A stretch of DNA of 64,000 nucleotides from Nitrososphaerota archaeon (GTDB taxonomy: Archaea > Thermoproteota > EX4484-205 > JAAOZP01): assembly GCA_011605725.1 (NCBI GenBank), contig JAAOZP010000012.1, forward strand, positions 74,238 to 138,237, written 5' to 3'. The position numbers and the translations under genes are program-made. Positions 13,572 through 55,837 of the stretch are shown piece after piece. How positions within the stretch are numbered: position 1 is the first letter of the stretch; each line of letters begins with the position of its first letter. The notes beneath the pieces were generated by a model. The model saw nothing but the letters and a program-made list of their open reading frames with translations. It did not search any database and was not told where the DNA came from.

Positions 13572-13615
13572 AGGTACGAGCAGTATAGACTCTTTAATTT
13601 GATTTTCATCCCCGT

Positions 13616-14224: not shown

Positions 14225-14230
14225 TTCAGA

Positions 14231-16759: not shown

Positions 16760-18072
16760 GGCTCACCTGACCATATTGGTCTTGCTTCCCCAACGGTGAA
16801 AACCGAGCCCGTAACCAGTATTCTACCTTCTTCCCCAGCACGCGATAATGCTAGAGCCACTGCCTCTCTAACAGTCGGCTCAGAACAGTATTTAGCATTC
16901 ATACTCTTCAAAACATCTGCCATGCTCTCAATCGGAAGAGCTCTTCCCATGACGCCATGCTGAGTCAGGATGAACTCGTCCGTGATCCTTGCGACAGACC
17001 TGAGAATCTTATCATACTCTTTATCTGAAGAAATACTAACAACTGTTTTAAACCTGGCTCCCGGCAACATCTCCTCTATGCTCGAAGCTAATGCTTCAGC
17101 AGCCGCCGGATCCTTTGCACAATCCAATATGACTAAAGGGTGTTTGCTAATGGGCTCCAGCCTCCCTGGCCAAACAACGTTAGCAAGACCCCTTCTCACG
17201 GCTTCCTCATTGAAGTTTGATTCACCCCTTAGCTCTGAGAACTTCAGATAGCTAGCTATGGCCGTCGACACGTTTACTGCCTGAAAACTCCCCCTGAGCG
17301 AAACCTTAAGGTTCTCTAACAGTGTTCCCGCAAGTTCAACATTCAAAGTTATCCCGGTCAAGTCAGACTTTAAAACCCTGTGCTTAACATCCCTAGGTAC
17401 TAAGGTGAGCTCTGAGCCCAATTCCCTGCAGCGTTCCTCCACGACCTTAAGCGCTGGGCCTGAACAAGCCGATACAGTTGGGCGTCCACGCCTTATTATG
17501 CCTGCTTTCTCAAAAGCTATTTTCTCAACAGTATCACCCAGGTGCTTCATATGCTCTAAAGAAACATTGGTTATGACTGAGAGCACTGGGTCACACGCGT
17601 TTGTCGCATCAAGCCTGCCTCCCATACCAACCTCGACGACAGCTACATCAACATGCTTCATCGAGAAATATTTATACGCCATGGAGACGTTGCACTCGAA
17701 AAAAGTTGGGAAACGTCCTAACCTTTGCGAAACTTTTTCACCAGCCTTTTTAACCTCCTCATAGGTCTCCACGACTTCTCTCCTAGTTATTTCCCGGCCA
17801 TCTACAACTATTCTCTCTGTGAACCGGCAGAGGTGCGGCTTCGTGAACGTTCCAACCTTAAGACCTTCCTCGCGTAGGATTGAGCTGATCATGCTGACGG
17901 TAGAGCCCTTCCCATTAGTACCTCCTACTAGGATTACAGGATAATCCTGCTCCGGGTTTCCAAGCTCGTTTAAAAGCCCCTTAACGACGTCCAAGCCTAG
18001 TTTTATCCCCCTCAGCTCATAGAGCTCCTTTAGAACCCGCAGGTACTCAAGGTCATCGGTCCAAGCGCTCAA
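16744..18072 (-). CDS. folC: Folylpolyglutamate synthase / dihydrofolate synthase
   Basis: 442 aa; Mur-ligase P-loop ILVGGTNGKGSTVSMI and FolC-like length. Confidence 0.85.
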   Translation of the reverse strand: MSAWTDDLEYLRVLKELYELRGIKLGLDVVKGLLNELGNPEQDYPVILVGGTNGKGSTVSMISSILREEGLKVGTFTKPHLCRFTERIVVDGREITRREVVETYEEVKKAGEKVSQRLGRFPTFFECNVSMAYKYFSMKHVDVAVVEVGMGGRLDATNACDPVLSVITNVSLEHMKHLGDTVEKIAFEKAGIIRRGRPTVSACSGPALKVVEERCRELGSELTLVPRDVKHRVLKSDLTGITLNVELAGTLLENLKVSLRGSFQAVNVSTAIASYLKFSELRGESNFNEEAVRRGLANVVWPGRLEPISKHPLVILDCAKDPAAAEALASSIEEMLPGARFKTVVSISSDKEYDKILRSVARITDEFILTQHGVMGRALPIESMADVLKSMNAKYCSEPTVREAVALALSRAGEEGRILVTGSVFTVGEARPIWSGEPYDGF

Positions 18073-19270: not shown

Positions 19271-19948
19271 CTATTTTAAAACCATTTTAGCATCTACAAC
19301 AGTCGCGCTAGTCTGATTCAAAACAACCGGGTTTGCATCTAAGCCAAGAATATGCTTCCCATATTCCTCCCCTATTGCTGAAAACCTTAAAACCAGATTC
19401 ACGAATGCGGCCTTGTTAACCCGTATATTCCTGAAGCCCTCCAGCAGTCCCCTGCCTTTCAACTCGCTTATCATTTCAAGCACGTCCACCCTTGAAACGG
19501 GAACCACTCTGGTCGAAATATCCTTATAGATTTCAGTATATATTCCTCCGATTCCAATCATTATACACATTCCGAAGTAATCGTCGTGAATCAGGCCGCA
19601 GATCATATCTACGTTTCCACTCACCATCTCCTCAACCAGCAGAGTTTCCCCTCCAAACTTCTCTCTGAAAACCTTGACGGAACGCTTGAGCTCAGACATA
19701 CTCCTTATGTTCAGTAAAACTCCACCCACATCCGTCTTATGGATAAACCTGTTGGAAGAAACCTTAAGGACAACGGGGAATCGTAAAACTCCTGCTTTAC
19801 TTAAATCCGAAATTTTCTCGACCACCACAAAACGGGGAACAGTTATTCCTTGGCTTTTCAGAAACGGCTTAACCAGATGCTCCGGTATATTCTTGCTTCC
19901 GGTCTCGGAAGCATAGTTCAAAATCCTTTTAAAAAATTTCTCGCTCAT
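19271..19948 (-). CDS. Acetyl-CoA synthetase (ADP-forming), beta subunit (ATP-grasp)
   Basis: 225 aa ATP-grasp-like ORF whose start overlaps the stop of the alpha-subunit gene by 4 nt. Confidence 0.7.
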   Translation of the reverse strand: MSEKFFKRILNYASETGSKNIPEHLVKPFLKSQGITVPRFVVVEKISDLSKAGVLRFPVVLKVSSNRFIHKTDVGGVLLNIRSMSELKRSVKVFREKFGGETLLVEEMVSGNVDMICGLIHDDYFGMCIMIGIGGIYTEIYKDISTRVVPVSRVDVLEMISELKGRGLLEGFRNIRVNKAAFVNLVLRFSAIGEEYGKHILGLDANPVVLNQTSATVVDAKMVLK

Positions 19949-21444
19949 CCTGCTCCACTTCTGTTCTTCCCTATTTTTAATAAATACTTTCCCCTCTCGT
20001 AAAGAACACGGAGAGAGAGAACTGCACGCCTTATGTCTGGGAAAACAGGCATGCCTCTGGACTCAAGCATCCTTATCACCTCCTCTGAATGCAGCCCTCC
20101 GATGATGCATGGAACCATCGGTTTCTTACCGTTTTTAAACCACCACCATGCAATCTCAACCAGCCTGTCCGTAGTGTAAGGAGTTTGAAGCAGTAGAAAA
20201 GCAAGTATGCCGTCAGTATTCTCATCCTCGTTCACAATCCTGAAAACATGGTCAAACATCTCGTCAGTAACGTTCCCAGTAAGGTCGACGGGATTATTCA
20301 CTGAAGCGAAGCTCGGCAGTTTTTCCCTAAGCCTCTTCTTCGAGTCATGAGAGAGTTCAGCCATTCTCAACTCTCCCCCGACGTTTCTATCCTCAATGTA
20401 ATCAGCCGCGATTACCCCATAGCCTCCACCTGACGTCACCACGACGATGTTTGGACCAAAAATCGGCTTCTGGTAGGCAAGAATACGTGAATAGTCGAAG
20501 AGTTCCAGAAGATCATTCGCCCTGATCACCCCGACTTGCTTTAAGGCTCCATCCATAGCTTGACTCGGCTTAGCCATAGAGCCGGTGTGCAACATAGCTG
20601 CCCTCGCACCCGTCTCGGTTCTTCCGGCTTTAAGTATCACTACAGGTTTGTAGGGAGTAATTTTCCTGCAAAGCTCGAGTAAGCGTCTCCCGTCTGCGAA
20701 GCTTTCAATATGCATGCATAACACCTTAGTTTTATCATCCTTGGAAAAGAATTCGAGCATATCGTTCTCGTTAACGTCCAGCTTGTTGCCCAGGCCGACG
20801 AAGGCGGAAATACCATATTGATGGTACTCAGCCATATCCATGAAGCCACTTGCAGAAGCCCCGCTTTGAGAGATGTAGGCTATTGGACCGTCAGGCGGCC
20901 TCCTAGACTTCTCCCTTAGTACAAACATCGTGTCCAGGCTTTCGCTAGGAACATAAACACCCAGCGTGTTTGGCCCAAGCAACACCATGTTTGTATTAGC
21001 GATCCTATTTTTAATCTCTTCCTCCAGTTTACGCCCCTCCTCCCCCGTTTCGCCGAAGCCTGCGGAGATAACTATAACCGCCTTAACGCTCTTTCTAATG
21101 CAATCATCAATCACGCTTGGAACACTTCTAGCAGGCACAGCAATGACCGCGAGATCAACATCCTCAGGAATATCGCTAACTCTCCCATATGCTTTCACAC
21201 CGTCAATAGTCTCCTGCTTAATGTTGACAGGATATTTCCTACCGGGAAAACTCTGCAGGTAGCTCCACATTATCCCGCCTATTTTAAGCCTGTTTGAAGA
21301 AGCCCCGATTAAAGCAACGCTTCTAGGATGAATTAAATAGTTTAAGTTAGAATACCTCTCTTTTACACGCCTACGAGAGGACATTTCTAATCCGTAAGCC
21401 GGTTGAACCTGGCTTCGCCGACGCTTGCTGTAGCTCACACTCAA
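19945..21444 (-). CDS. Acetyl-CoA synthetase (ADP-forming), alpha subunit (CoA-binding plus succinyl-CoA synthetase-like domains)
   Basis: 499 aa; CoA-binding N-terminus HPRSVALIGASSNRLKIGG; true start may be an internal Met. Confidence 0.75.
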   Translation of the reverse strand: MSVSYSKRRRSQVQPAYGLEMSSRRRVKERYSNLNYLIHPRSVALIGASSNRLKIGGIMWSYLQSFPGRKYPVNIKQETIDGVKAYGRVSDIPEDVDLAVIAVPARSVPSVIDDCIRKSVKAVIVISAGFGETGEEGRKLEEEIKNRIANTNMVLLGPNTLGVYVPSESLDTMFVLREKSRRPPDGPIAYISQSGASASGFMDMAEYHQYGISAFVGLGNKLDVNENDMLEFFSKDDKTKVLCMHIESFADGRRLLELCRKITPYKPVVILKAGRTETGARAAMLHTGSMAKPSQAMDGALKQVGVIRANDLLELFDYSRILAYQKPIFGPNIVVVTSGGGYGVIAADYIEDRNVGGELRMAELSHDSKKRLREKLPSFASVNNPVDLTGNVTDEMFDHVFRIVNEDENTDGILAFLLLQTPYTTDRLVEIAWWWFKNGKKPMVPCIIGGLHSEEVIRMLESRGMPVFPDIRRAVLSLRVLYERGKYLLKIGKNRSGAG

Positions 21445-30094: not shown

Positions 30095-31249
30095 CTATTG
30101 GAGCTTTGCACCACAATTGAGGCAGAACTTTGAACCCTCAGGCACCGTGGACCCGCATTTCGGACAGTTAACACTCTGAGGCTGCAACTGAGCCCCACAG
30201 TTCATGCAGAACTTTGCGCCAGCAGGGTTCTGCGTTCCGCATTTCGGACAATTCACCGTGGCCTGCATGGGTGCACCGCAGCTCATACAGAATTTAGCTG
30301 TGCTCGGGTTCTGCGCCCCGCATTTAGGGCACGCTACTGTTCCTGCTGGAGGCGCGGCAGGTGGCTGCGCCGGCGGCGGAGGTGCTTGGATGGCTGCGCC
30401 GCAGGACGGGCAGAACTTGCTTGTAGAGGGTACTTGAGCTTTGCAGCTTGGACATATGACCATTGGTGCTGCGGCAGCCTGCTGCATTAGCTGGGGCACC
30501 AGAACTATTCCTGTTCCAGCCGCCGCCCCGGGCGACTTGCTTAGGGACTCGGCGACGCTCTTAGTCGTGTCCATCGCCATGACTTGTGTCGCAGCGCCGC
30601 CGGTCTGCTTTATCCAGAACAGCCTATCCCTGTACTCCGGCGTGGTGTCGACGCCCTCAAACTTTAGGTCTATGACGTCTACGCCGACGCGCTTAAACTC
30701 CTCGTCTATCGTTGCCTTAACCTTGAACGAAACCTCCTCAAGCTTTGTGAAGACCGTCACAAGGTCGTATTTCGAGAGCTGCGTTATCAGCCTCTCGTTC
30801 ATGAAGCCCCGTAGAAAGCTGTTTACGGATTCGGTGGTGTAGGCGCTCTGCCCTCCCACGACCTCCATTACGAACGTCTTTGGGTCTCCAACTTTAAACC
30901 AGAATGCCCCGTAGAACTTCAGGGGTGCGAGCTCAACCGTCTGCCCGCTGGCTCCGAACAATCCTTTAAACTGCTTCGTGGAGACGAATATGACTGTGGC
31001 TTTGAAAGGCGTGGTTTCGAAGCCAGCCACCCTTGTTAAGACGCCTGTGAGCAGCGGAAGGTTCATCGTTGTTAAAGTATGTCTGCCAGGCCCGAAGACA
31101 TCGTAGGCTTTGCCGTCCCTGAAGAATATTGCAGCCTCATACTCGTGGACGATCAGCTGAGCACCCCAGGTTATCTCCTCCTTAGGGTATCTCCAGACGA
31201 TGTCTTCAGCCGAGGCCCCTACCCACTCTATTATCTGAGGCATCTTCAA
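30095..31249 (-). CDS. SPFH (stomatin/prohibitin-like) domain protein with four tandem C-terminal zinc ribbons
   Basis: 384 aa; N-terminal ~250 aa SPFH-like; C-terminus carries four CPxCG-x7-KFCxxCGA units separated by a Pro-rich linker. Confidence 0.6.
   Translation of the reverse strand: MKMPQIIEWVGASAEDIVWRYPKEEITWGAQLIVHEYEAAIFFRDGKAYDVFGPGRHTLTTMNLPLLTGVLTRVAGFETTPFKATVIFVSTKQFKGLFGASGQTVELAPLKFYGAFWFKVGDPKTFVMEVVGGQSAYTTESVNSFLRGFMNERLITQLSKYDLVTVFTKLEEVSFKVKATIDEEFKRVGVDVIDLKFEGVDTTPEYRDRLFWIKQTGGAATQVMAMDTTKSVAESLSKSPGAAAGTGIVLVPQLMQQAAAAPMVICPSCKAQVPSTSKFCPSCGAAIQAPPPPAQPPAAPPAGTVACPKCGAQNPSTAKFCMSCGAPMQATVNCPKCGTQNPAGAKFCMNCGAQLQPQSVNCPKCGSTVPEGSKFCLNCGAKLQ
30098..30460 (-). repeat. 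In-frame tandem coding repeats (four ~75 nt units) encoding the zinc-ribbon modules of the SPFH protein
   Basis: Repeated ccgcatttcggaca / ccgcatttagggca-type units read on the plus strand; all inside the CDS. Confidence 0.6.
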
Positions 31250-37459: not shown

Positions 37460-37924
37460 ATGAGGGTGAAAAGGAAGCGTAAAATGGTTTTTCCCAGAAC
37501 CATGTTTGAATGCAAAGTGTGCGGGAAATGCTGCGTTGAGGATGTTAAGCGTGGTAGACGGATAGTTCTAACCGAGATTGACGCCTTAGAAATATCTAGC
37601 GCTACCGGAATAGGTTTGAACGAGTTCGCGGAGAAAAACAGTAGTGAAGCCTATCCGTACGCTATTAGGCTTGTCAACGGAAGATGCTTCTTCCTTAATC
37701 AGGACAACAAGTGCAGTATTTACCCGGTTAGACCTCTGGTGTGCAGGTTCTACCCTTTCGTAATGCATAAGATTGGAGAGACATACGTGTTTCACGCTGA
37801 CCCTTTCTGTCCAGGACTTGGGGAAGGCACTTATCTTGACGAAGAATATTTCGAAAGGCTTGTCGAGCTGGCTGAGAAGCGTTTAAAAAAGCCTACTGGG
37901 CTGTTCGAGGCGCGCCGCAGTTAG
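37460..37924 (+). CDS. YkgJ-family zinc/iron-chelating (CxxCxxCC) domain protein
   Basis: 154 aa; CKVCGKCC motif plus downstream CRFYPF and FCPG Cys motifs. Confidence 0.55.
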   Translation: MRVKRKRKMVFPRTMFECKVCGKCCVEDVKRGRRIVLTEIDALEISSATGIGLNEFAEKNSSEAYPYAIRLVNGRCFFLNQDNKCSIYPVRPLVCRFYPFVMHKIGETYVFHADPFCPGLGEGTYLDEEYFERLVELAEKRLKKPTGLFEARRS

Positions 37925-38468
37925 GGCACCTGGTCTCACTCTGCGGGAAAACAGTTCCACAATACTTGCATGAAACAGTGGATAGCACGTGCTGAATCTG
38001 GAGAGGCGGGGAAACATGTATTTCGATTGTTTTACTTGTCGCATCAGGCCGCCCTTCTACAGCAGCAACCCCCTTCAGACTCCAGGCTACGACCCTATCT
38101 AGGCTCTTGAAAGAAGGCTGGGCTCCTGGAGGTATTAGGATTTTAAACTGGTAGCTTTGGACAAAACCCTCGGGAACGTGAAGAGGCCCAGCCAACTGTG
38201 GTCTAGCTGAAAATATGACTGCAGAATCCCAGACCTGTTGCTCAACCTCCCTTTTAAGAGAAGCATTGTAAACCCTCCTGGTTCTACGTACCCGCTCAAT
38301 ACATTCAAGCTCGCACCTTATCTCCGTGCAGTCGAACTCTTCCTGAGACTCAACCTGTACTGCGCCCTCCACAGTGTCGCCAAGATAGAAGACCTGTTTA
38401 CTCAGAAACAGAGAGATGTTTACCCTGGGCGGTGTAACCTTATCCCTGAGTTTCTTAAACAGGCTCAC
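37893..38468 (-). CDS. Hypothetical protein with beta-rich N-terminal domain (possibly arrestin/Spo0M-like) and C-terminal zinc ribbon
   Basis: 191 aa; C-terminal CKYCGTVFPQSETRCPNCG zinc ribbon; 3' end overlaps the convergent YkgJ gene by 32 nt. Confidence 0.35.
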   Translation of the reverse strand: MSLFKKLRDKVTPPRVNISLFLSKQVFYLGDTVEGAVQVESQEEFDCTEIRCELECIERVRRTRRVYNASLKREVEQQVWDSAVIFSARPQLAGPLHVPEGFVQSYQFKILIPPGAQPSFKSLDRVVAWSLKGVAAVEGRPDATSKTIEIHVSPPLQIQHVLSTVSCKYCGTVFPQSETRCPNCGAPRTAQ

Positions 38469-44838: not shown

Positions 44839-45903
44839 TTAAGCATCGCATTCACCATAATAATTCATGAGGCTTTCGAAAGCCGTGCAAACCGCGTCTA
44901 TGTTTTCAAGCGGAACATCTGCATGAATCTCTGAATACATCATTAATCCTCCTTTCTCAGAACCGAGCTTGACAACAGCCTCATGAATGTGGCTCCTGAT
45001 TTCCTCAGGATTGCCGAAGGGGACAAGGAGTTGACGGTCTATATCCAGGTCGATGCAAACCCTCCCCTTGATCTCCTCTCTAATATTGTCTAGCCCGTTA
45101 ACCCGGTCCTGAATATTTAAGACTGAAACACCCGCTTCCATAAGGGCATCAGCCACCTCCATTATGTGGCCGTCAGTATGCAGGTAAACCCTTATCCCTG
45201 AATCCCTGACTCTCCCGAATATTTTCCTGTATGAAGGATAGATAAACCTTCTGAACGTCTTAGGGCTTATTGGCATCCTGTCTTGAAGACCAAGATCGTC
45301 CCCGAAGGAAACCATGTCAACCCTGAGCCTGATGAATCTTTCAACAAGAGCAAGATTATACTCGGTCAACATCTCTATTAGTTTTTCAAGCTGACTAGTG
45401 TTTCTCACGAAGTCCATCATCAGGTTTTCAAATCCTCTCAGATAATAGAGCCTTTGGAAGAAGAAGCCGTGAGGCATACTTCCGACAATAACATCATCCA
45501 TTTTCCTAGCATTTTCTATTCTCTCCTCAATCGCATCCCACGGGTCTAACCCACCACCCTCCTGAACAATGCCTTTCTCCGGATCGGGTAGACTATAGTG
45601 CGCAAAGTCAGACCAATCCTTCAAAGGGTGCTTCACAACCTGACCCTGCAACCCGCTTATGTTAAACCTCCATAAGCATCCGAAGTCATCCAAAACCTCT
45701 CTACCCTTCAACCTGCTTCCGAAGTTGTTAAAGTCGACACTTCCCTTCTTGAACGTTGGGAAAAGCCTAGGATGCCTAGCGAGCAGGTCCTCAAGCTTAT
45801 CCCTATACTTGCTCCAAGTCGTTGGGAAAATTCCCACTCTACAAGGGATCCACCCGCAACCATTCATGTCTATGACTCTAAGCTTTTTCACTCTGATGCT
45901 CAA
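44839..45903 (-). CDS. URO-D family protein (uroporphyrinogen decarboxylase-like, putative methyltransferase)
   Basis: 354 aa; C-terminal half (YLHTDGHIMEV...) follows the URO-D TIM-barrel pattern. Confidence 0.5.
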   Translation of the reverse strand: MSIRVKKLRVIDMNGCGWIPCRVGIFPTTWSKYRDKLEDLLARHPRLFPTFKKGSVDFNNFGSRLKGREVLDDFGCLWRFNISGLQGQVVKHPLKDWSDFAHYSLPDPEKGIVQEGGGLDPWDAIEERIENARKMDDVIVGSMPHGFFFQRLYYLRGFENLMMDFVRNTSQLEKLIEMLTEYNLALVERFIRLRVDMVSFGDDLGLQDRMPISPKTFRRFIYPSYRKIFGRVRDSGIRVYLHTDGHIMEVADALMEAGVSVLNIQDRVNGLDNIREEIKGRVCIDLDIDRQLLVPFGNPEEIRSHIHEAVVKLGSEKGGLMMYSEIHADVPLENIDAVCTAFESLMNYYGECDA

Positions 45904-46012: not shown

Positions 46013-47122
46013 GTGTCAAGGAACCCGAATATAGGTAGACTGCTTAAAGTCCTTCTGAGAGAGGGAGAGCCGGATAGAGTACCTTTCTACGAGCATTTCG
46101 TCGATAACGAGGTTATTGAAGCCTTGACAGGTAAGCCTGTATCTAAGGCTTTAGCTGAAGAAGGCTTGAGCTCAGAGAAATACCTTAACACCTTGATTGA
46201 GTTCTATTCTAGGCTCGGGTACGACTATGTTCCGATGGAGGTTTCTCCTAAACTCCCCAGGACTAATGTTCTTCAGACGAACGATGTCGCTTATCTTTCC
46301 CGTGGGAAAAGAACCTGGCAGGATGAGAACAAGGGGACGATTGAAACAATTGAGGATTTTGAAAAATACCCCTGGCCCAGTCCAGATGAAGCACTGGATT
46401 TTTCAGTGTTTGAAAGACTGAGGAGAAAACTGCCTGAAGGCATGGGGGTTGTTGGGGGAGTCGCCGGAGGATTCTTCGAGCATGTGAGCTGGCTGATGGG
46501 CATTGGAAAACTCTGCAGGGCCGTGTACTTGGACAAGAGGCTTGTTGAAAAAATGTTCAGCAAAATCGCCATGCTAATAATTTCCCTAGACGAGAGGATA
46601 GTTAAGGAAGGGTATGTTGATGCCTTGAGGATGGGTGACGACTTAGGGTATAAGACGGGCACGTTTCTGCCGCCCAGAATCCTACGGGAATACGTTTTCC
46701 CAAACTACAGGAGGCTCGCCGACTTGGCGCATTCGAAAGGACTTCCATTTATAATTCATTCCTGCGGAAACCTGTATACTCCTGACGAAACAGGGAGAAC
46801 AGTGATGGATGATCTTGTGAACAGTGTTAGGATAGATGCTAAACATTCTTTTGAAGACAATATAATGCCAGTATACGAGGTTAAGGAGAAGTATGGGAAT
46901 AAGGTAGCGGTGCTGGGCGGTGTAGACATGAATAAGCTTGTTCAACTTCCTGAGAAAAGCCTGAGGGAGTACGTCAGGCTAATAATTAAGAAGTGCGCAC
47001 CAGGAGGCGCATATGCTTTAGGCTCTGGAAACACGATAGCCAACTATGTGCCCTTAGAAAACTATCTCGCGATGCTCGACGAAGGTTTTAGAAGCGGAGT
47101 ATATCCGATAAGGATTAGTTGA
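46013..47122 (+). CDS. URO-D family protein (uroporphyrinogen decarboxylase-like, putative methyltransferase)
   Basis: 369 aa; IIHSCGNLYTP and downstream pattern typical of URO-D/MtaA-like proteins. Confidence 0.55.
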   Translation: MSRNPNIGRLLKVLLREGEPDRVPFYEHFVDNEVIEALTGKPVSKALAEEGLSSEKYLNTLIEFYSRLGYDYVPMEVSPKLPRTNVLQTNDVAYLSRGKRTWQDENKGTIETIEDFEKYPWPSPDEALDFSVFERLRRKLPEGMGVVGGVAGGFFEHVSWLMGIGKLCRAVYLDKRLVEKMFSKIAMLIISLDERIVKEGYVDALRMGDDLGYKTGTFLPPRILREYVFPNYRRLADLAHSKGLPFIIHSCGNLYTPDETGRTVMDDLVNSVRIDAKHSFEDNIMPVYEVKEKYGNKVAVLGGVDMNKLVQLPEKSLREYVRLIIKKCAPGGAYALGSGNTIANYVPLENYLAMLDEGFRSGVYPIRIS

Positions 47123-47133
47123 GAAACAGGTTT

Positions 47134-48300
47134 TCAACACGCGTCAGGCTTAATCCTGTCTAAATGTTTGAAGCGCTCTCTCCTTATCGGATACCTTCCA
47201 ACCTTTTTAGCGTATTCAACCTCATACTTCAAGCGTTCAGGAGGCACTTTGGCATATGTCTCACCGCCATTGTCGAAAACATAGCCGCCGCCGGGTGCAG
47301 CATGAAAAATGCATTTCTCAACCTCAAGCTCAATGCTTTCAAAAGATCCGTCTACTAGAACCCTCCAGTCAGCGTTGCCGTTGAAGAACACTTTCCCCTT
47401 AAACGCTTCACTAATTGTTTTAATATTGTTCTCAACACCTACATCAGCCTCCTTTATCCTGTAAACGTTTACAAGTATGTCTGTTATGTGATCCATGTGT
47501 GAATCCATGTGTAAATACCGGTGGTTGGCGCCGTGCCGCTCGTAAAGCCGAAGGTTATAAGGCATCGCGAACTCCTCGTACATCCTCCTATTCAAGTAGC
47601 CTGAATGATCGTCAGCCAAGCCTAGGCTTCCTGGCCCCGACCCGGAAAGCTCATAATAGTATTCTTGGAGAACGTTGAAAGCCTCCTCCAGTTTTCGGAA
47701 AAGCCTATGCATTTCACTAGGATTCTCATAGAGCCACCGATATAGTTTTCCCGGGCCCAGTAGAGAGCCGGCTGCTGAAACCGGCGGATGTATCTGGAGC
47801 CGGCCTTCGACAGGAAGACCATCATAGTTTTTACGAACAAGCTCCCTGAACTTTTCAAGCTTCTCATAGTAGGCTTGAACCCCTTTGTGGCGATGCGGGT
47901 CCGGAACCTCCAGCTTATCAATATCCTCAAGAGTCTTAATGCGGGGAATTATCCATGGGCTGAGCCAAGGGTTTCTCTCATCAGGCATTTCAATCTTGCA
48001 GTCGAAAACAATGCCTTCAGATACGGCTCCAAGGTCTAGATGCACCCCTATACTTGTTAAATCATCTTCAAGCCATTTCAGCCTCCATTTCAATCCTTTC
48101 ACTTGAGCATCCAGCATTATACTCGTATCGTTATAGTATTCGGCGAAAGTATAGCCAAAAAGCATCGCGTAATATGGTCCTCCCAGCCCTATGATAACCG
48201 GAACCCTATCAGGCTCCTTAAACTGAGCAGCTTTCTCAACGCGCTTCCTATTCTCCTCCAGGAGACTCGAATACTTGGCTTTGTTGAAAGGCTCCATCAA
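47134..48300 (-). CDS. URO-D family protein (uroporphyrinogen decarboxylase-like, putative methyltransferase)
   Basis: 388 aa; C-terminal LHMDSHMDHITD...AAPGGGYVFDNG pattern typical of the family. Confidence 0.5.
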   Translation of the reverse strand: MMEPFNKAKYSSLLEENRKRVEKAAQFKEPDRVPVIIGLGGPYYAMLFGYTFAEYYNDTSIMLDAQVKGLKWRLKWLEDDLTSIGVHLDLGAVSEGIVFDCKIEMPDERNPWLSPWIIPRIKTLEDIDKLEVPDPHRHKGVQAYYEKLEKFRELVRKNYDGLPVEGRLQIHPPVSAAGSLLGPGKLYRWLYENPSEMHRLFRKLEEAFNVLQEYYYELSGSGPGSLGLADDHSGYLNRRMYEEFAMPYNLRLYERHGANHRYLHMDSHMDHITDILVNVYRIKEADVGVENNIKTISEAFKGKVFFNGNADWRVLVDGSFESIELEVEKCIFHAAPGGGYVFDNGGETYAKVPPERLKYEVEYAKKVGRYPIRRERFKHLDRIKPDAC

Positions 48301-48433: not shown

Positions 48434-50392
48434 ATGAAGGATAGGGTCTTCCCAGTTTTCAAGAAACCCGGGAAGCTCAGGGTACTTGACGTCCGGCCGT
48501 ATTCTTGGCATGAACAGATGACAATAACCTGCGCGCAAGGATTGATAAACCGTGTGAAGCCAAGGGTTTACCTAGTGTTCGACGATTATGTTGACAGACT
48601 ATGGCTGTCAATCTACGGGAAAAGATACGGAGTGAAGCATGAGGAGGTTAACAATATTTACGAGCTACTGTCATCCTTTAGAAGGGAAATAGCAGGGTTC
48701 GTGGTTTACGATGAGAACATGCTGCATTCTGCAAACGTAGCAATGACGTATGGAAGCATCCATAATGCGGTTCCAGCGTCCCCAGGGGTTGCGGAAAAGC
48801 TTTCGGAAGCAGGCTTCAGGAAGATAGCTGATTTCAGAGGCAAATGGGGAAATAGGATTGAAGCCTACGAATGGGCTTTTCAAAACCTGATGCAGCAGTG
48901 CAATAAAAGGATTGTTGGAAGCATGTGTGTAGACCCTCCTTTAACATCATTCACGAATAAGCATCATGTTAGAGACTATCTCGTTGCAGTGAAAGCATTC
49001 TCCTTCGACCTCTCCACTAAGATTAGGGACCGCCGTGAAGTAGAATTGTTCGACAGGATACTTAGCTCTTTCGACTCGCTAGGAGTGGTTTTAGGATGGC
49101 ACTGCATCAGGGACCTTGAGTCGGAGGCTGTTGCAAGAGCATCTGCAAACGGCTTCTTCGTGCTTTGCAACCTGCATTCTCCAAACCTGACTGTCCACTC
49201 AGGCGTGAAGACCAGTTTCAAGTTTAAACAGAGGCATGTTAAGAAAGTAATGCTGGAGGAAAAGGTTTACGTGGCCTTCATACAGTCTGATGGAGACGCT
49301 GTTTGGGCAATGAACAATTTTCAAAACCTTAACTGGCTTGACAGCCAGAGGGGAAGATTCCCCTACACATGGGAGATTCAACCCTTGCTGCTGGACCTAG
49401 CACCCGGGATTCTGGAACACTATTACAGGACTGCGACTTTAAACGATTATTTTATAGCTGGACCTTCGGGAGCAGGCTATACTGCACCCAGTGTTAACAA
49501 GCGTCTTGACGAGTTCCTTGAGCACACTAAGAGGTATATGGAGGCATGTGATTTAAGGTCAATATTAATCATGAACCGTAACCCCCGGGTGGCCTACCAG
49601 GAGCTTGAAGACCCTAAGGTTTCTGAGGCTTTTGCTAAAAAGCTTGAAAACTGTTACGGGTTTCTGCATGGCTACTCAGGATCGGCTTTCGAGCCAGCGT
49701 TCTTCTTTAACAGTAAGCCGTATTTTCACACAACGCTCTACGCCTCCGCTTCAACAGATATTTTGAAAGAGCTGAAGCGGCTTGTGGAAGACTGCGAAAC
49801 ACGACCATTATTCGTCTCAATCCACGTTAGAGAAGAGGTTAAAATGCCAGTCTTACGCAGCGTGATAGAGAAGCTTGACAGTGAAACATATAGGGTTGTG
49901 AAAATGGATGAGTTCATGCTTACCTTGAAAAAGGCTTATGAAAAAGGCCTGTTTAAACAGGGCTTTTCAGAATCAGCCAGGGAATCTCTTAGGGAAAACG
50001 GTAAAACAATTTGGGAAACATACCACCGAAGAGTTGAACGCTTGGAGAGGCTTGTCGAAATGGATGAGCAAAGAATGCTGGCGGAGTACAACTCGGACGG
50101 ATACGGTTTCACCGTAGAGGAGTTGCCGGATCTTCTGGCTTACGATGCGGTTGAGATAGCACTACGGCTTGTTCAGGCAGCGTTAAACATGAAGGGTGTT
50201 TACGTGAATAATGTTGAGAAGAGCGTTAAGGACTTTCTGAAGGAGTATAGCGAGCTTCCAGGCGCCCAGATTGTTGAAACAGTTTTCGAAACCTGGAGGA
50301 ACTGGGAGAGAACCAGGAGTAGCATGGAGGAAGCAAGGACACTGGCGAGAAGAGTAGTTGGGTTTGCGAAGGCTCTTGAGGAGAAAATTTAG
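48434..50392 (+). CDS. GxGYxYP-like putative glycoside hydrolase with C-terminal helical extension
   Basis: 652 aa; contains AGPSGAGYTAP, close to the family-defining GxGYxYP motif; weak assignment. Confidence 0.4.
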   Translation: MKDRVFPVFKKPGKLRVLDVRPYSWHEQMTITCAQGLINRVKPRVYLVFDDYVDRLWLSIYGKRYGVKHEEVNNIYELLSSFRREIAGFVVYDENMLHSANVAMTYGSIHNAVPASPGVAEKLSEAGFRKIADFRGKWGNRIEAYEWAFQNLMQQCNKRIVGSMCVDPPLTSFTNKHHVRDYLVAVKAFSFDLSTKIRDRREVELFDRILSSFDSLGVVLGWHCIRDLESEAVARASANGFFVLCNLHSPNLTVHSGVKTSFKFKQRHVKKVMLEEKVYVAFIQSDGDAVWAMNNFQNLNWLDSQRGRFPYTWEIQPLLLDLAPGILEHYYRTATLNDYFIAGPSGAGYTAPSVNKRLDEFLEHTKRYMEACDLRSILIMNRNPRVAYQELEDPKVSEAFAKKLENCYGFLHGYSGSAFEPAFFFNSKPYFHTTLYASASTDILKELKRLVEDCETRPLFVSIHVREEVKMPVLRSVIEKLDSETYRVVKMDEFMLTLKKAYEKGLFKQGFSESARESLRENGKTIWETYHRRVERLERLVEMDEQRMLAEYNSDGYGFTVEELPDLLAYDAVEIALRLVQAALNMKGVYVNNVEKSVKDFLKEYSELPGAQIVETVFETWRNWERTRSSMEEARTLARRVVGFAKALEEKI

Positions 50393-50397: not shown

Positions 50398-50781
50398 TCA
50401 GCATGCTAGAAGCAAAGCGATAGCTATCGCAACGTCACTCGTCCTATCATGGCTTAAGCTGATTAAAACTCTTCTAGCACCCTTCTCGCGGAGAAGATTG
50501 AGAAGCGGTTCACTCATAACTATTCTGACCTCCGAGTTGACCGTTTCAGTCTCAACACCCCTCCACCCTAGCCGGCTTCTGCTAGCATGACCTATGGCTT
50601 TGAAAACCGCCTCTTTGGCTGCAAACCTTGCGGCTAGCTTCTCGTAGGGACAGCCCGATTGAAAACAGTATTCAATCTCCCTATCTGTGAAAACCCTTTT
50701 TAGAAAACGTTCACCGCCCTTCTCTATAGCCTTCTTAACCCTGTTTATCGAAACAGCATCAACGCCAACCCCGGTTATCAA
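50398..50781 (-). CDS. acpS: Holo-[acyl-carrier-protein] synthase (4'-phosphopantetheinyl transferase)
   Basis: 127 aa; MITGVGVDAVSINRV...KEAVFKAIG pattern typical of AcpS. Confidence 0.7.
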   Translation of the reverse strand: MITGVGVDAVSINRVKKAIEKGGERFLKRVFTDREIEYCFQSGCPYEKLAARFAAKEAVFKAIGHASRSRLGWRGVETETVNSEVRIVMSEPLLNLLREKGARRVLISLSHDRTSDVAIAIALLLAC

Positions 50782-50795
50782 GCCTATCTGAAAGT

Positions 50796-51041
50796 TCAGC
50801 AGCCTGCTTGAGCCAGCTTCCTCTTTATGTATTCAACAACCTGACCCACTGTCTGGTTTTTCTCAGCCTCCTCCTCAGGAATCTCCAGGTTGAAAGCCTC
50901 TTCGAAGGCTGCGATCAGCTCAACAGTATCTATTGACTCAGCCATAAGGTCGTCCACGAGAGAAGTGTCGTCCTTCAAGCTTTCAACACTAACACGGAAG
51001 TGTTCAGCTATAATCTTCTTAACCTTCTCCTCAACCGACAT
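50796..51041 (-). CDS. Acyl carrier protein
   Basis: 81 aa acidic four-helix protein; phosphopantetheine-attachment context DDLMAESIDTVEL. Confidence 0.65.
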   Translation of the reverse strand: MSVEEKVKKIIAEHFRVSVESLKDDTSLVDDLMAESIDTVELIAAFEEAFNLEIPEEEAEKNQTVGQVVEYIKRKLAQAGC

Positions 51042-51042
51042 T

Positions 51043-52323
51043 CTACATACCTCCTCGCTCCATTCTCATCTCCGCCTTCCTTATTAAAGTTTCCCTCTCC
51101 TCTCTAGTGTCCTGATATATTTTCTCAAGCATCCTGACGTAGCTCTCCGACATTACGACAGACCTTCTCGACATGACTCTCTTCTCCGCTTCAACAGTCC
51201 TTCTGAAGCCAGCACCCCTTCTCAACCTTCCTTCAGCATACCAAGAGAAGCTTGGAATATACTTGGGAAGAACCTCCCCGCCTAGGAGGACGCATGCTAC
51301 TCCGACAACGGTTCCAGTGTTCAGCAGGCAACCTATGCCGAACTTCGTATGGTCTCCTATGAAGCTGCCAACCTTCAGGTCACCAGTATCCATTAACCTA
51401 CCTTTCACGTAGACGTCGACATTACTGTAATCATTCTTAAGATCACTATTAGTAGTCAGGGCGCCGATGTTAACCCATTCACCAACGTAAGCATGGCCCA
51501 GGAAACCAGTGTGATACTTGTTAGAATAACCGTGGATGATGCTTGCCTCAACCTCTCCCCCAACCCTGCAGACAGGCCCTATCGTTGTCTCCTCCCTTAT
51601 GTTTCCACGGACAATCCAAGTATTCCTCCCAATGTAGCAGGGTCCTTCGACACGGCTGAACGGATATATGCGTGCATCCTCGTCAACTATTATTGGGCCG
51701 GAGCTAGTGTCTAGAACAACGAAAGGATGTATAACTGCATTTTTACTAACGTGAAGCATACTCTTTTCTCCGACGACAGCAACCTTCTCGTCTAAGGATC
51801 CAGCCCCCTCCTGCTTAGACCAGTATGCTTCAAAATCCTCCTTCAGCATTTCGTGATTATACTGGATAAGGTGCCACGGGTATTCTACCATCCGGGCGTC
51901 AACCTGCTTAACGCTCAGCTCAGACCTAAGATTCTCAACAGTCTTCTGAAAAGTATCTGAAAGTTTTCTTCTAACTGTTTCCCTCTTGACGTGAATATAT
52001 ACTATATCATCCTTGCACATCGCGATGACCTCGTCTTTCTCAAACGGGAGATGGCCGTGCTCAGGAAGCCACCTACCGTTAACCAGAATAGCATCATCCC
52101 TACTCAGATCCTGAAGGCTGTTCACAACAACGTCTCCAAGCCTTTCTCTCAGAACAGGAGCCAAATAGTCCCTTAGGAAGAAAGAGGTCTCGACACCGGG
52201 ATGAGTCCTCCTGATTCTTTCAACAAGCGTCATCGACCCGCATCTCAGCTCGAAAGTAGCTCTTGTAAGCGTCAACGGGTAGAGAAGGTCATACTTCTCA
52301 TCCTCGAACACGCAGACCTTCAA
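51043..52323 (-). CDS. Left-handed beta-helix (hexapeptide-repeat) protein with nucleotidyltransferase-like N-terminal domain
   Basis: 426 aa; N-terminus MKVCVFEDEKYDLLYPLT resembles sugar-nucleotidyltransferase-like domains; central region has hexapeptide-like repeats. Confidence 0.5.
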   Translation of the reverse strand: MKVCVFEDEKYDLLYPLTLTRATFELRCGSMTLVERIRRTHPGVETSFFLRDYLAPVLRERLGDVVVNSLQDLSRDDAILVNGRWLPEHGHLPFEKDEVIAMCKDDIVYIHVKRETVRRKLSDTFQKTVENLRSELSVKQVDARMVEYPWHLIQYNHEMLKEDFEAYWSKQEGAGSLDEKVAVVGEKSMLHVSKNAVIHPFVVLDTSSGPIIVDEDARIYPFSRVEGPCYIGRNTWIVRGNIREETTIGPVCRVGGEVEASIIHGYSNKYHTGFLGHAYVGEWVNIGALTTNSDLKNDYSNVDVYVKGRLMDTGDLKVGSFIGDHTKFGIGCLLNTGTVVGVACVLLGGEVLPKYIPSFSWYAEGRLRRGAGFRRTVEAEKRVMSRRSVVMSESYVRMLEKIYQDTREERETLIRKAEMRMERGGM

Positions 52324-52358: not shown

Positions 52359-53570
52359 TTAATGGTTTAATAAGTGTTTCCTAGTCTCCTCAGCTATAGC
52401 AAGCTCCTCATCAGTCGGTATAACTAGAACCTTAACCCTAGACTGCCTACTGCTTATCACCCCAGTTCTGCCCACTGTCACCCTATTCGCATCCTCGTCA
52501 ATCATTAAACCTAGGAAACTCATGTTGTCACATATCATTCTCCTTATGAGAGGATCGTTCTCACCTATCCCGCCTGTGAAAACAAGTATGTCGAGCCCAC
52601 CCAACACTACGGTGTAAGCACCTATATACTTTTTAGCCCTGTAGGCAAAGATATCTAGGGCAAGCCTAGCCCTTTTGCTGCCAGCCTCAGCCTCCCTCTC
52701 CACATCCCTAATATCGTTGCTAACACCCGAGACACCAAGGAGCCCACTCTTCTTGTTAAGAATGTCTTCAACCTCCCTGGGGGAGAAGCCCTCGCCGATC
52801 AGGTAGAAAACTATCGACGGGTCTATGTCCCCGCTTCTAGTACCCATGACCAGGCCTTCCAACGGGGTGAAACCCATGCTAGTATCTATTGACCGTCCGT
52901 TTTTAATAGCGGTTATGCTGCAGCCGTTTCCGAGATGACAAGTCACCATCCTGAGCTTCTCAAGAGGCTTGCCAAGTATCTCGGCAGCCCTGTGAGCAAC
53001 ATACCTGTGGCTTGTCCCGTGAAACCCGTATCTCCTTATTCCGAACTTCTCGTAAAGCTCGTAAGGTATGGCGTAGAGATAAGCTGTCTCCGGCATAGTC
53101 TGGTGGAAAGCGGTGTCGAACACCGCTACCTGGGGGACTTTTGGAAGAAGGCTTCGCGCAGCCTCTATACCAGCTATGTTCGGAGGATTATGGAGCGGAG
53201 CCAGGTAAGCCCATTTCCTAAGGGCCTCCAGAACCTTTTCGTCGACAACCGTGGCTTCGAAGAAAGAATCCCCGCCGTGAACAACCCTGTGTCCAACTGC
53301 AACTATTTCCTCGAGTGAAGCAATAGCCTTCGGCTCAGCATCGAGGAGAACCCTGAGAATAAGCTCAAGGCCCTGCCTGTGGTTGGAAACATCAACCTCG
53401 CTTCTAGACACGATTCCACGAACCTCATGTTTTAAAACCGCCGGCCTGCTTCCGATTCTCTCCAGCAGGCCGCTGGCAACACCCGTCAATAAATCAGCGT
53501 CGAAAAGCTTGTACTTTATTGATGAGCTACCGCAGTTCACGACAAGTATTTTCCCCGGCAACCCTTTCAC
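52359..53570 (-). CDS. ackA: Acetate kinase
   Basis: 403 aa; N-terminal [16 protein letters not shown] and full-length ASKHA-fold pattern. Confidence 0.9.
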
Positions 53571-54571
53571 CCGGCTGACTGCGCTAGAACGGAGACAACA
53601 GCCATAGCTCCAACGATGTCTTCAACCTTAGCACCCCTTGAAAGATCGCTGACGGGCTTCTTGAAACCCTGGAGAATAGGACCGTAGGCTCCTGCTCCAG
53701 CCACGTGTTGAGTAAGCTTGTACGCTATGTTTCCAGCATTCAGATCGGGAAATATAAGGATGTTAGCCCTGCCGGCTACCGGGCCGAGATCTTTCATCTT
53801 CTTCCTGGCAACATCCATCACGAGCGCCGCGTCAGCCTGAAGCTCCCCGTCAACCTTGATCTCGGGCGCCCGCTTCTTAACGATCTCGGTTGCTCGAACC
53901 ACCTTATCCACAAGAGGATGTACTGCACTACCCTTGGTTGAGAATGAGAGCATCGCTACCCTCGGCTCCCAGCCTAGGAGCCTACTGACGCTTCTAGCTG
54001 TGGATACAGCTATGTCCGCAAGCTGCTCAGGAGTTGGATCCGGATTTACCGCAGCGTCAGCGTAAACCAGGACACCGTTTTCACCAATATTCTTGTTCCC
54101 GGTCTCCATTATGAAGAAGCTTGAAGGTGTTTCAACCCCCTTCTCATACCCAATTACAAGATGGCTGGCTTTAATAACGTTTGCAGTAGTGGTGGAGGCA
54201 CCGGCAACCATCGCGTCAGCCAAACCCGTCTTAACCATCATGCAGGCAAAATAAAGCGGCTTGCTGAGTATTCTTCTCGCAACAGCCTCGCTGACACTCT
54301 TCTCCTCCCGGGCCCTGCAATACTCCTTGACAAAACCGTCTAAATAGCCGGAGGCCGCTAAGTCTACGACTTCAACACCGGTTAAGGATAAGCCCAGCGA
54401 AGCAGCGTTCTTCTCCACGGTTTCTCTCGAGCCTAACAGTATTGGTTTTGCAATACCCTGCTCCACGGAGGCGGCGGCTGCCCTCAGTATCCTTTCATCC
54501 TCAGGCTCAGGTAGAATAATCCTCATAGGCTTCTCCCTAGCCCTGTTCTTTATCAGCTGGATTACTGACAA
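53567..54571 (-). CDS. pta: Phosphate acetyltransferase (short form)
   Basis: 334 aa; N-terminus [16 protein letters not shown]...KPILLG typical of Pta; stop overlaps the ackA start by 4 nt. Confidence 0.85.
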
Positions 54572-54772
54572 TCTGCGGCTGGAAACCCGGAGAATTTAAT
54601 AAACTTTTTGCGTTAAGCGTCTCATCACCTGGTGTGCAGCATTGCTGGGCGTAACACTATCTTAGGCGGAACATGGTTCATCTTTCTAATCTTCAGCTGC
54701 ATGCATCAACATTAACTCAGAAATAACTGGTTAGAAAGCCTTTTAAAAGGAGGAACCAGTAGTATTTTCGGG

Positions 54773-55837
54773 ATGAAAATAAGGTCCATAACGCTTTTCG
54801 CAGCATCCGGGGAAATGCAGAGCGTTAGAGAACGCGTCTCAAACCTGGGCTCAATGCTTTCATTCAACATAGAATCAATGTTTCTGTCGGAAAGCGTTTG
54901 GAGCACGAGGGTTGCGCTTCCACCCTTAAGCGAGCAGGAAACCCCTATGAAGAGAGCCTCTCAGCTTCTTGATCTAAACGTTGTAAACTATGCTTCAATA
55001 GGTCAGGTTGAGGATGCGCATCCGGCTTTAGAGGAGGTTGTGGAGGTTGTTGAAAACGGGCTCTACGTTTCTATAAACATGAGGAGCACAGATAGGATTA
55101 AGAGTATTGAAAAGGTTTTGAGAAAAGCATGTGAGAAAAACCCTTCTAACGGAAGCCGGATATGTGTCAACATGGGTGGAGACATATTTACACCATATTT
55201 TCCTTCAGCATGCAACCTGCATGGTGAAGAAGGATTAGCAATATCTCTACTGTATCCCAGTCTCCTCAGACACAAGCATTTAAACCAGTTTCAAGACATT
55301 CTCGCCGAAGTTTACGCTTCAACCGAAAAAGTTGGTCTAAAGCTTTCCGAAAGGCTTGGGATCAATTACTACGGGGTTGACGCCTCACTGTCACCCTGGA
55401 TGGAGGAGAGCGTCGCAGAGATCATTGAGTTCGCCTCAGGGGTTAGAATACCGCTTCCAGGAACCCTCAGCACGATTAGAGAGATAAACAGCCTTATAAG
55501 GAGTGCTGTTAAAACGGCTGGGATAAGGGCGACAGGCTACAATGAGGTCATGCTGCCGGTTGCTGAAGATAATGTTTTGAAGGAGAGGGTTGCGGCGGGA
55601 GACGTTAAGCTCAGGGACCTTGTATACTTGGCTTCAGCATGCGTCTCCGGAGTCGATATGGTTGTGGTCTCAGACAATGCTCCTAGCAGGATTATAGAGG
55701 GAGTTTTTAAAGACCTTTTTGAAATAAGCATGTTGAAAGGCAGAGCCACCGGGTTGAGAATGATTTTCGCATCAGCAGAACCGGGTGAAACAGTTAAACT
55801 TAATTTCTTCGGGTGGACACCCGTTATATCGCCCTAA
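54773..55837 (+). CDS. Hypothetical protein, possibly DUF711/UPF0210-like
   Basis: 354 aa; N-terminal KIRSITLF resembles the IRTITMG start of UPF0210 proteins; weak. Confidence 0.3.
   Translation: MKIRSITLFAASGEMQSVRERVSNLGSMLSFNIESMFLSESVWSTRVALPPLSEQETPMKRASQLLDLNVVNYASIGQVEDAHPALEEVVEVVENGLYVSINMRSTDRIKSIEKVLRKACEKNPSNGSRICVNMGGDIFTPYFPSACNLHGEEGLAISLLYPSLLRHKHLNQFQDILAEVYASTEKVGLKLSERLGINYYGVDASLSPWMEESVAEIIEFASGVRIPLPGTLSTIREINSLIRSAVKTAGIRATGYNEVMLPVAEDNVLKERVAAGDVKLRDLVYLASACVSGVDMVVVSDNAPSRIIEGVFKDLFEISMLKGRATGLRMIFASAEPGETVKLNFFGWTPVISP

Follow-up and report, generated by a model that had tools for sequence, protein, structure and literature searches.

A five-gene operon in a Bathyarchaeia-like archaeon joins an acyl carrier protein and a GlmU-like protein to acetate enzymes

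Acyl carrier proteins (ACPs) and ACP synthases occur in only a few unrelated archaea, which obtained them by transfer from bacteria (PMC3533463). What, then, are an ACP gene and a holo-ACP synthase (AcpS) gene doing side by side in an archaeal genome, next to the gene of a hexapeptide-repeat protein? The question is raised by a stretch of 64,000 nucleotides, here called the window, from the Nitrososphaerota archaeon assembly GCA_011605725.1 (contig JAAOZP010000012.1, positions 74,238 to 138,237 of the forward strand). A sequence-only reading of this DNA had remarked on the rarity of both proteins in archaea, in agreement with the published record, and had proposed that the three genes form a dedicated acyl-transfer module, possibly acquired horizontally. 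Our analysis places them as the three distal genes of a five-gene operon, pta-ackA-HEX-ACP-AcpS, where HEX is the name that we use for the 426-aa hexapeptide-repeat (left-handed beta-helix) protein encoded at window positions 51043-52323. The proposed carrier-dependent module remains the best reading, given the adjacency of HEX and ACP genes described below, but not as the complete unit: its two upstream genes, ackA and pta, fall outside the interval 50398-52323 to which it had been confined. The features of the operon, in window coordinates, are as follows.

50398-50781, minus strand: AcpS-type holo-ACP synthase, 127 aa, pI 9.6 (PF01648, TIGR00516)
50796-51041, minus strand: dedicated acyl carrier protein, 81 aa, Ser36 in an AES-I motif, pI 4.4 (PF00550, TIGR00517)
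51043-52323, minus strand: HEX, GlmU-like, with a nucleotidyltransferase-like domain, a beta-helix and a basic C-terminal extension, 426 aa
52359-53570, minus strand: ackA, acetate/propionate-family kinase, 403 aa (PF00871, 517 bits; TIGR00016, 516.2 bits)
53567-54571, minus strand: pta, opening the operon, phosphate acetyltransferase of 334 aa (PF01515, 371 bits; TIGR00651)
54595-54610, minus strand: candidate archaeal BRE/TATA element, caaaaag tttattaaa, read from the sequence

The contiguous minus-strand block that had been described for the three distal genes is present, with gaps, read directly, of 1 nt between HEX and ACP and 14 nt between ACP and AcpS; a GGAGG sits 8 nt 5' of the ACP start. 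Further upstream, the ackA stop lies 35 nt ahead of the HEX start and the pta stop overlaps the ackA start by 4 nt. The start codon of pta is TTG, and a divergent intergenic region of 200 nt lies 5' of the gene. The BRE/TATA-like element stands about 28 nt before this codon and, judging from the known layout of archaeal promoters, would yield a leaderless operon transcript. The operon is bordered in all close relatives by the same two genes, which in the window are a GxGYxYP putative glycoside hydrolase gene (48434-50392, plus strand), convergent with AcpS with 5 nt between the stops, and a DUF711 gene (54773-55837, plus strand), divergent from pta. The comparison of composition that the earlier reading had suggested set nothing apart: G+C is uniform across the window, and a compositional anomaly of the operon was rejected, the block having the window average of 0.476.

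The ACP and the AcpS are what they had been taken to be. The 81-aa acidic protein, first recognized as ACP-like from DDLMAESIDTVEL, scores 49.8 bits against PF00550 (cutoff 20.8), 82.8 against TIGR00517 (cutoff 70.45) and 86.1 against NF002148 (cutoff 71). In an alignment that includes the 46 ACPs of related loci, its Ser36, within LMAES-IDTVEL, falls on Ser36 of E. coli AcpP, and this serine is invariant in all 46 linked ACPs; the conserved serine context, whose lack the earlier reading had named as a reason to abandon the identification, is thus there. Glu replaces Asp35 ahead of the serine, which keeps the charge, and E41 and E47/E48 have their counterparts; all of these acidic positions matter for recognition by AcpS (bioRxiv 10.1101/2025.01.28.635281). 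The linked ACPs form a subfamily of their own, DLGAES[IV]QS[IV]ELVAAFEEEF, with Glu and not Asp before the serine. A single-sequence AlphaFold2 model of the window ACP (pI 4.40; pLDDT 78) is a small acidic helical bundle, with helices at residues 3-15, 39-50, 56-61 and 65-79 and helix II beginning directly after Ser36. The AcpS is a single-domain protein of 127 aa that exceeds the cutoffs of PF01648 (68.7 bits; cutoff 25), TIGR00516 (62.0; 59.8) and TIGR00556 (67.0; 45.35), and its translation holds GVGVD (with D8), FAAKEAVFKA and SLSHD; we take the Mg/CoA-binding motifs of such enzymes to be GxD near the N-terminus, KEAxxK and SxSH.

HEX had been described as a left-handed beta-helix protein, and its family matches agree with this. 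It reaches 385.2 bits against TIGR03991 (alt_bact_glmU; cutoff 225.3), residues 1-403 aligning with model positions 1-394, and 86.3 bits against PF13562 (NTP_transf_4; cutoff 27) over residues 3-167, and it contains PF00132 hexapeptide repeats. It stays below the equivalog cutoffs of GlmU (TIGR01173, 23 bits, cutoff 367; Arch_glmU TIGR03992, 100.8 bits, cutoff 292) and below those of LpxD-type models (TIGR01853, 19.9 bits, cutoff 242.5; NF002060, 18.7 bits, cutoff 207). An AlphaFold2 model built from 49 homologues (pLDDT 86, pTM 0.87) has the two-domain fold of GlmU, nucleotidyltransferase plus beta-helix: an N-terminal alpha/beta domain is followed by a left-handed beta-helix at about residues 182-347 and then by a C-terminal extension (about 373-422) of three helices (373-385, 393-405 and 407-422), which is very basic (pI 10.8). 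In a profile search of PDB sequences the beta-helix aligns with residues 242-385 of the archaeal GlmU-type enzyme ST0452 (82 bits). His308 of ST0452, which we take to be catalytic, corresponds to the invariant H271 of HEX. Y311 and N331, which together with K337 and K340 presumably bind the sugar-1-phosphate, correspond to the invariant F274 and D294.

The N-terminal domain has diverged more deeply. Sugar nucleotidyltransferases are marked by a GxGTR loop and by a Lys after TR. In the 49 HEX sequences, whose N-terminal consensus is MKxCIFEDxKYxxLYPLTLTRPVFELRCG, the loop is missing, FED-x-KY standing in its place, and so is the catalytic Lys, replaced by Val or Ala; a bifunctional GlmU activity is therefore doubtful. 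We conclude that HEX is a protein of GlmU architecture whose acyltransferase centre is predicted to be intact. The nucleotidyltransferase domain has probably degenerated or taken on another use, and probably binds substrate or plays a structural part and makes no nucleotide sugar. TIGR03991 is a hypothetical equivalog only, and the diphosphorylase activity in its NCBIfam name ('UDP-GlcNAc diphosphorylase/GlcN-1-P acetyltransferase') is not supported by these predicted features. No paper came up when the literature was searched for TIGR03991, PF13562, NTP_transf_4 or 'putative sugar nucleotidyl transferase'. A comparison of ACP-linked HEX genes with a clade that has no ACP revealed no residue specific to the former that could mark a candidate ACP docking site: the ACP-less clade keeps the same conserved residues, with no difference in the core, R386 and R387 included.

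The association of HEX with an ACP is not a peculiarity of this contig. Scanning one genome per GTDB species with the HEX alignment gave 80 loci, five of them archaeal; the bacterial ones belong to Planctomycetota (including the anammox Brocadiaceae), Omnitrophota, Latescibacterota, Poribacteria, Aerophobetes, Elusimicrobia, Desantisbacteria, TA06, Ratteibacteria, Bacteroidota and others. Six-frame open reading frames (ORFs) of these loci were searched with the window proteins and with the proteins of an Elusimicrobia locus. Of the 76 loci whose downstream flank measures 500 nt or more, 41 have an ACP gene directly 3' of HEX on the same strand, and immediate HEX-ACP adjacency spans at least ten phyla. 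Where at least 3 kb is available on both sides (41 loci), the neighbours are ACP (25 loci), NagB (23), Pta (15), AckA (14), AcpS (5) and an ADP-forming acetyl-CoA-synthetase-type enzyme, ACD (3). Pta, AckA or ACD accompanies HEX at 17 of the 25 loci with ACP and at 1 of the 16 without it (Fisher p ~1e-4, indicative only, given the lack of phylogenetic independence among the loci). With HEX and ACP side by side in so many phyla, a dedicated carrier-dependent acyl-transfer module is the best reading of the locus.

Three arrangements can be told apart. Type A, [NagB] Pta AckA HEX ACP [NagB] [AcpS], is found in many phyla and in all ACP-bearing archaea; its genes stand in different orders in different phyla but the set itself persists, a classic signature of functional coupling. 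Type B, [NagB] HEX ACP HMGL-like [ACD], is found in many Planctomycetota. Type C, HEX alone, occurs in Planctomycetaceae, Gemmataceae, Isosphaeraceae and one Nitrososphaeria metagenome-assembled genome (MAG). The NagB of the clusters is a true glucosamine-6-phosphate deaminase (TIGR00502, 348 bits), so that amino sugars are implicated twice, although no nagB lies within 10 kb of the window operon or of its closest relatives. Unbiased clustering of the flanking ORFs of all 80 loci brought out no other widely recurrent family and no NagA-like family; a direct search with E. coli NagA as an unvalidated probe also gave no match in the loci or in the window, the clustering being the firmer ground for this negative. 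Pfam scans of the extra flanking ORFs of Planctomycetota loci returned nothing consistent, and we found no paper describing the conserved module in the searchable literature.

The HMGL-like protein of the Planctomycetota loci (about 465 aa, with a DTTFRDGQQ motif) is a divergent, distant relative of homocitrate, citramalate and isopropylmalate synthases, at 110-116 bits to isopropylmalate/homocitrate synthase models, far under their cutoffs. Its gene directly follows HEX-ACP or HEX, sometimes together with ACD, in these loci.

HMGL-like loci, all Planctomycetota: L028, L044, L048, L051, L052, L055, L056, L061, L065, L071, L072, L081, L087-L091

Is the host truly an archaeon? The closest HEX homologues (99, 89, 86... 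73% identity) belong to MAGs with the NCBI label Thermoproteota archaeon or Thermofilum sp.; a look-up of the exact window HEX sequence had no match, and the relative with the 99% identical protein served in its place. Their contigs, up to 236 kb long and from several independent assemblies, are syntenic with the window over about 20 kb. The five-gene order is kept in archaeal relatives at 99, 89, 73, 58 and 52% HEX identity and likewise in MAGs of Thermofilaceae and Thermoproteales. In Candidatus Bathyarchaeota B24, whose HEX is 58% identical, the same five genes lie on a 106-kb contig within 2 kb of the genes for Nep1, Rpr2, P1/L12, P0/L10, L1, L11 and Spt5, an arrangement repeated on an independent 72-kb ENA contig. 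An archaeal, Bathyarchaeia-like host is thus supported, and the possibility, raised with the original observation, that the contig would prove bacterial has not materialized.

The operon itself has bacterial roots, as had been suspected. In a neighbour-joining tree, which is rough and carries no support values, the HEX proteins of Bathyarchaeia form one clade nested among bacteria, next to Poribacteria and Aerophobetes; those of Thermofilaceae and Thermoproteales form a second clade, and that of the Nitrososphaeria groups with the ACP-less clade. AcpS homologues with 56-99% identity are confined to the same archaeal group, bacterial AcpS reaching at most 48%. Outside the archaea, Pta, AckA, HEX and ACP each have their nearest relatives in one and the same small set of phyla, which argues for transfer of the operon as a block. 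Horizontal acquisition is well supported by these comparisons, and the operon was probably acquired en bloc from bacteria by an ancestor of this Bathyarchaeia-like archaeon. AcpS adjoins every ACP-bearing archaeal locus (convergently in two), and bacterial co-location is clear only in L019 and weak in L037 and L039. This distribution argues that the ACP depends on phosphopantetheinylation for its function. Most simply, bacteria use their housekeeping AcpS whereas the archaea had none, so that the module was workable only if AcpS came along.

The two remaining genes of the operon encode acetate enzymes. Pta (TIGR00651, 338.8 bits, cutoff 311.2) and AckA (TIGR00016, 516.2 bits, cutoff 293.4) both score above their equivalog cutoffs, and Pta matches solved Ptas at about 242-266 bits. 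In the numbering of M. thermophila Pta, the catalytic S309, R310 and D316 and also R87 are conserved in the window protein and in 24-25 of 25 cluster Ptas. The position of Arg133, which together with R87 we take to contact the phosphates of CoA, is Lys in the window and Gln (14 of 25), Arg (6) or Lys (5) in the cluster Ptas; it is Arg in the three other solved Ptas of the alignments. The frequent Gln is suggestive at most as a sign of lost contacts with the CoA nucleotide. In Bathyarchaeota B26-2 (locus L013, positions 198-700), two short AckA-like fragments of about 60 aa each lie in the roughly 500 nt between pta and HEX; ackA may be a remnant in this lineage, while HEX-ACP-AcpS-NagB is intact. 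The window also encodes a two-subunit ACD (19271-21444, minus strand), so pta-ackA is not the only acetate-ATP route of this genome:

19271-19948, minus strand: ACD beta subunit (ATP-grasp_5)
19945-21444, minus strand: ACD alpha subunit (CoA_binding/Succ_CoA_lig)

What could such an assembly do? The presence of pta and ackA in the operon points to a short group, acetyl, and not to fatty acyl chains. We tentatively propose, as the most likely reading, a dedicated acetyl-ACP shuttle, acquired en bloc from bacteria, that would link acetate and acetyl-phosphate to the N-acetylation of amino-sugar phosphates. AcpS would add 4'-phosphopantetheine to Ser36, converting apo- to holo-ACP; AckA and Pta, replaced in some bacteria by ACD, would interconvert acetate plus ATP, acetyl-phosphate and an acetyl thioester; the acetyl group would ride on the dedicated ACP; and the beta-helix domain of HEX would take it off acetyl-ACP to acetylate the amino group of a hexosamine phosphate of the GlcN-1-P or GlcN-6-P type. 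We infer that acetyl is the cargo, that Pta or ACD charges or discharges ACP and not CoA, what the acceptor is, which way the flux runs and, as the earlier reading implied, that acyl-ACP is the donor of HEX. Transfer from a thioester to an amine or hydroxyl is strongly exergonic, and all beta-helix acyltransferases known to us run in this direction. The forward direction is preferred because of these precedents and the thermodynamics, together with the dedicated-ACP triads and the PlsX case discussed below. A phylum rich in HEX may offer a place for such an enzyme. In Planctopirus limnophila the annotated GlmU (Plim_3650) has 322 aa, only its nucleotidyltransferase domain is essential, and its hexapeptide part tolerates transposon insertions (PMC10632474). 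This leaves room for a separate acetyltransferase, and a HEX homologue, for instance, may carry out the step instead.

Several observations weigh against this proposal. With acetyl-CoA abundant, it is not obvious why plain acetyl should need a carrier of its own. Pta and AckA look fully canonical and Pta retains R87, so they may act on CoA and not on ACP; if so, the loader of the ACP may be none of the enzymes identified. The residues presumed to bind the sugar-1-phosphate in ST0452, K337 and K340 among them, are not conserved in HEX, so GlcN-1-P may not be the acceptor. In about a third of the loci HEX has no ACP nearby. Many Planctomycetota clusters combine NagB-HEX-ACP with the HMGL-like protein and have no Pta, AckA or ACD in their flanks, which leaves such Type B clusters with no source of acetyl-ACP unless HEX itself is the source. 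Moreover, NagB is normally catabolic.

In the most interesting rival reading, HEX runs in reverse. It would move the N-acetyl group of GlcNAc-6-P or GlcNAc-1-P onto holo-ACP, replacing the hydrolytic deacetylase NagA; NagB would remove glucosamine-6-P and pull the reaction, and acetyl-ACP would be converted to acetate and ATP by Pta/AckA or ACD in anaerobes, Bathyarchaeia included, or, in Planctomycetota, condensed with a 2-oxoacid in a Claisen reaction by the homocitrate-synthase-like enzyme. The usual operon partner of nagB is nagA, and it is suggestive that nagB adjoins HEX-ACP in 23 of the 41 well-flanked loci while no NagA-like family recurs there. All the variable partners (Pta-AckA, ACD, HMGL-like) consume an acetyl thioester, and the NagB-HEX-ACP-HMGL clusters close a cycle of loading and unloading only if HEX loads the ACP; the distribution also fits, with the ATP-yielding version in anaerobic fermenters and the condensing one in Planctomycetota. 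The reading also supplies the missing rationale for a dedicated carrier, which would insulate the thioester pool from a highly acetylated CoA pool. If true, it would mean an unprecedented, acetyl-conserving catabolism of amino sugars, and the archaeal 'acetogenesis' marker genes pta-ackA would belong to an amino-sugar route. Nevertheless, we consider it quite improbable: going from amide to thioester is uphill by about 20-30 kJ/mol by our own estimate, so that coupling to ATP would work only at extreme ratios of substrate to product, and we know of no beta-helix acyltransferase that operates in this way. In addition, no nagB occurs within 10 kb of the operon in the window or in its closest relatives, and anammox autotrophs also carry the cluster.

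A more conventional view needs no acetyl-ACP at all. HEX could be an ordinary acetyl-CoA-dependent enzyme of the GlmU type, merely co-regulated with an ordinary fermentative Pta-AckA pathway working on acetyl-CoA, with the ACP an accessory or regulatory partner or serving an enzyme encoded elsewhere. HEX does exceed the cutoff of a model named as a GlmU alternative, Pta and AckA have the scores of canonical equivalogs and keep their catalytic residues (and Pta its R87), the ACP-less HEX clade keeps the same conserved residues, and bathyarchaeial pta-ack is generally read as acetate-forming (PMC8407382). We regard this as rather unlikely, since TIGR03991 is a hypothetical equivalog only, the HEX family is devoid of the GxGTR loop and the nucleotidyltransferase Lys, and ACP presence tracks that of Pta, AckA or ACD (17/25 versus 1/16); HEX-ACP adjacency in at least ten phyla and co-transfer of AcpS are also hard to explain without a direct functional link. 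A derivation of ACP and AcpS from an acquired bacterial-type fatty-acid or polyketide synthase, with HEX as an LpxA/LpxD-like fatty acyltransferase, can draw on the score of the ACP above the AcpP-type TIGR00517 cutoff. It was rejected as very improbable, as a scan of the 46 larger window ORFs brought up no ketosynthase, FabD, FabG, FabZ or FabI family and no Fab or ketosynthase family recurs among the flanking ORFs of the 80 loci; the partners are acetate enzymes. Across the same ORFs and loci the ACP thus does not fit a housekeeping AcpP role with a fatty-acid synthase, and the module is not one. Finally, a bacterial or chimeric, mis-binned contig would leave no archaeal ACP to explain, and it would suit the bacterial affinities of all five genes and a window with no rRNA, tRNA or ribosomal protein genes (nor any tRNA or Rfam match). 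Contamination is hardly credible and was rejected, in view of the synteny with several independent Thermoproteota-labelled assemblies and of the B24 and ENA contigs, where archaeal genes for ribosomal proteins, Spt5, Rpr2 and Nep1 lie no more than 2 kb from the cluster; the uniform G+C of the window and the archaeal-type candidate BRE/TATA-like element before pta also speak against it.

Other genes of the window deserve a brief mention. A tetrahydrofolate (THF)-type C1 gene cluster (10721-18072), a bacterial-style methyl branch in an archaeal contig, comprises a PurN-like formyltransferase, FolD, a 5-formyl-THF cyclo-ligase fusion and a FolC-like ligase, together with

10721-12457: formate-THF ligase
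12648-13571: MtrH-like methyltransferase

Four paralogues of the URO-D family (MtaA/CmuA-like methyltransferase fold) are encoded at 7488-8561, 44839-45903, 46013-47122 and 47134-48300; three of them are clustered just downstream of the operon, an arrangement kept in the relatives at 73-99% identity. A 191-aa ORF (37893-38468, minus strand) has an Arrestin_N/Rgp1-like match (E 1.7e-9), which is unusual in an archaeon, and a protein encoded at 30095-31249 (minus strand) fuses an SPFH/Band-7 domain to several C-terminal zinc ribbons.

The individual families of the operon are known, and the transfer of pta-ack to Bathyarchaeia has been published (PMC8407382). What we rate as new is a proposed dedicated-carrier acyl-transfer system on a GlmU-like scaffold, wired to acetate metabolism. 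Here an archaeal ACP and AcpS clearly have a role outside fatty-acid synthesis, and their recurrent non-fatty-acid operon context in Bathyarchaeia and other Thermoproteota means that their presence is not evidence of bacterial-type lipid synthesis in these archaea. In these Bathyarchaeia the pta-ackA genes are bound, both physically and in their evolution, to a carrier-protein/acyltransferase module in a genome that also has ACD, and the role given to them in MAG studies, acetate formation or acetogenesis, may need revisiting. The module formed by NagB, Pta/AckA or ACD, HEX and ACP, conserved in Planctomycetota, Omnitrophota, Latescibacterota, Poribacteria, Aerophobetes, Elusimicrobia, anammox bacteria and other groups, is probably a widespread and testable part of amino-sugar and acetate metabolism, and the annotation of TIGR03991 as an 'alternative GlmU' is called into question.

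Among known systems, the nearest in architecture is ST0452 of Sulfolobus tokodaii (PDB 2GGO/5Z09), an archaeal GlmU-type sugar-1-phosphate nucleotidylyltransferase with GlcN-1-P/GalN-1-P acetyltransferase activity. HEX differs from ST0452 and GlmU in its N-terminal domain, devoid of the GxGTR loop and of the Lys of the TRPK motif, and in its extra basic three-helix C-terminal extension (about 373-422), and from ST0452 in having the invariant F274 and D294 in place of Y311 and N331. It is also genomically tied to an ACP, as no GlmU is known to be, whereas ST0452 uses acetyl-CoA. In this respect HEX recalls LpxA and LpxD, beta-helix acyltransferases that act on amino-sugar/UDP-sugar substrates with an acyl group from an ACP docking on their C-terminal helical domain; like them it combines a basic helical C-terminal extension with an ACP, here a neighbour by genomic association only. 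Its score with the LpxD model, however, is no more than 19.9 bits where 242.5 would be needed, and while LpxA and LpxD use the housekeeping AcpP with long 3-hydroxyacyl chains, here we find acetate enzymes and a dedicated ACP. For the loading step, PlsX, an acyl-ACP:phosphate transacylase of the Pta superfamily, is a precedent for the interconversion of acyl-phosphate and acyl-ACP, although the Pta of the operon is a canonical PTA_PTB member and not a PlsX.

The operon shares its first two genes with the published Pta-Ack pathway of Bathyarchaeia, in which bacterial-type, horizontally acquired Pta-Ack of some lineages is read as forming acetate from acetyl-CoA (PMC8407382); the term 'acyl carrier' is absent from the main text of that study, and a literature search combining Bathyarchaeota with 'acyl carrier protein' returned only papers that, by title and abstract, concern unrelated topics. 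Bacterial serine palmitoyltransferase offers a further parallel: it reportedly relies on a specialized ACP and an acyl-CoA-synthetase-like enzyme (PMC9386255). Similar to that triad, a transferase gene co-occurs here with its own ACP and with an ATP-dependent acid-activating enzyme. In that case an adenylate-forming ligase does the loading and the group is a long-chain acyl, whereas the candidate loaders of the system described here are AckA plus Pta or the ADP-forming ACD, and the group carried is probably acetyl.

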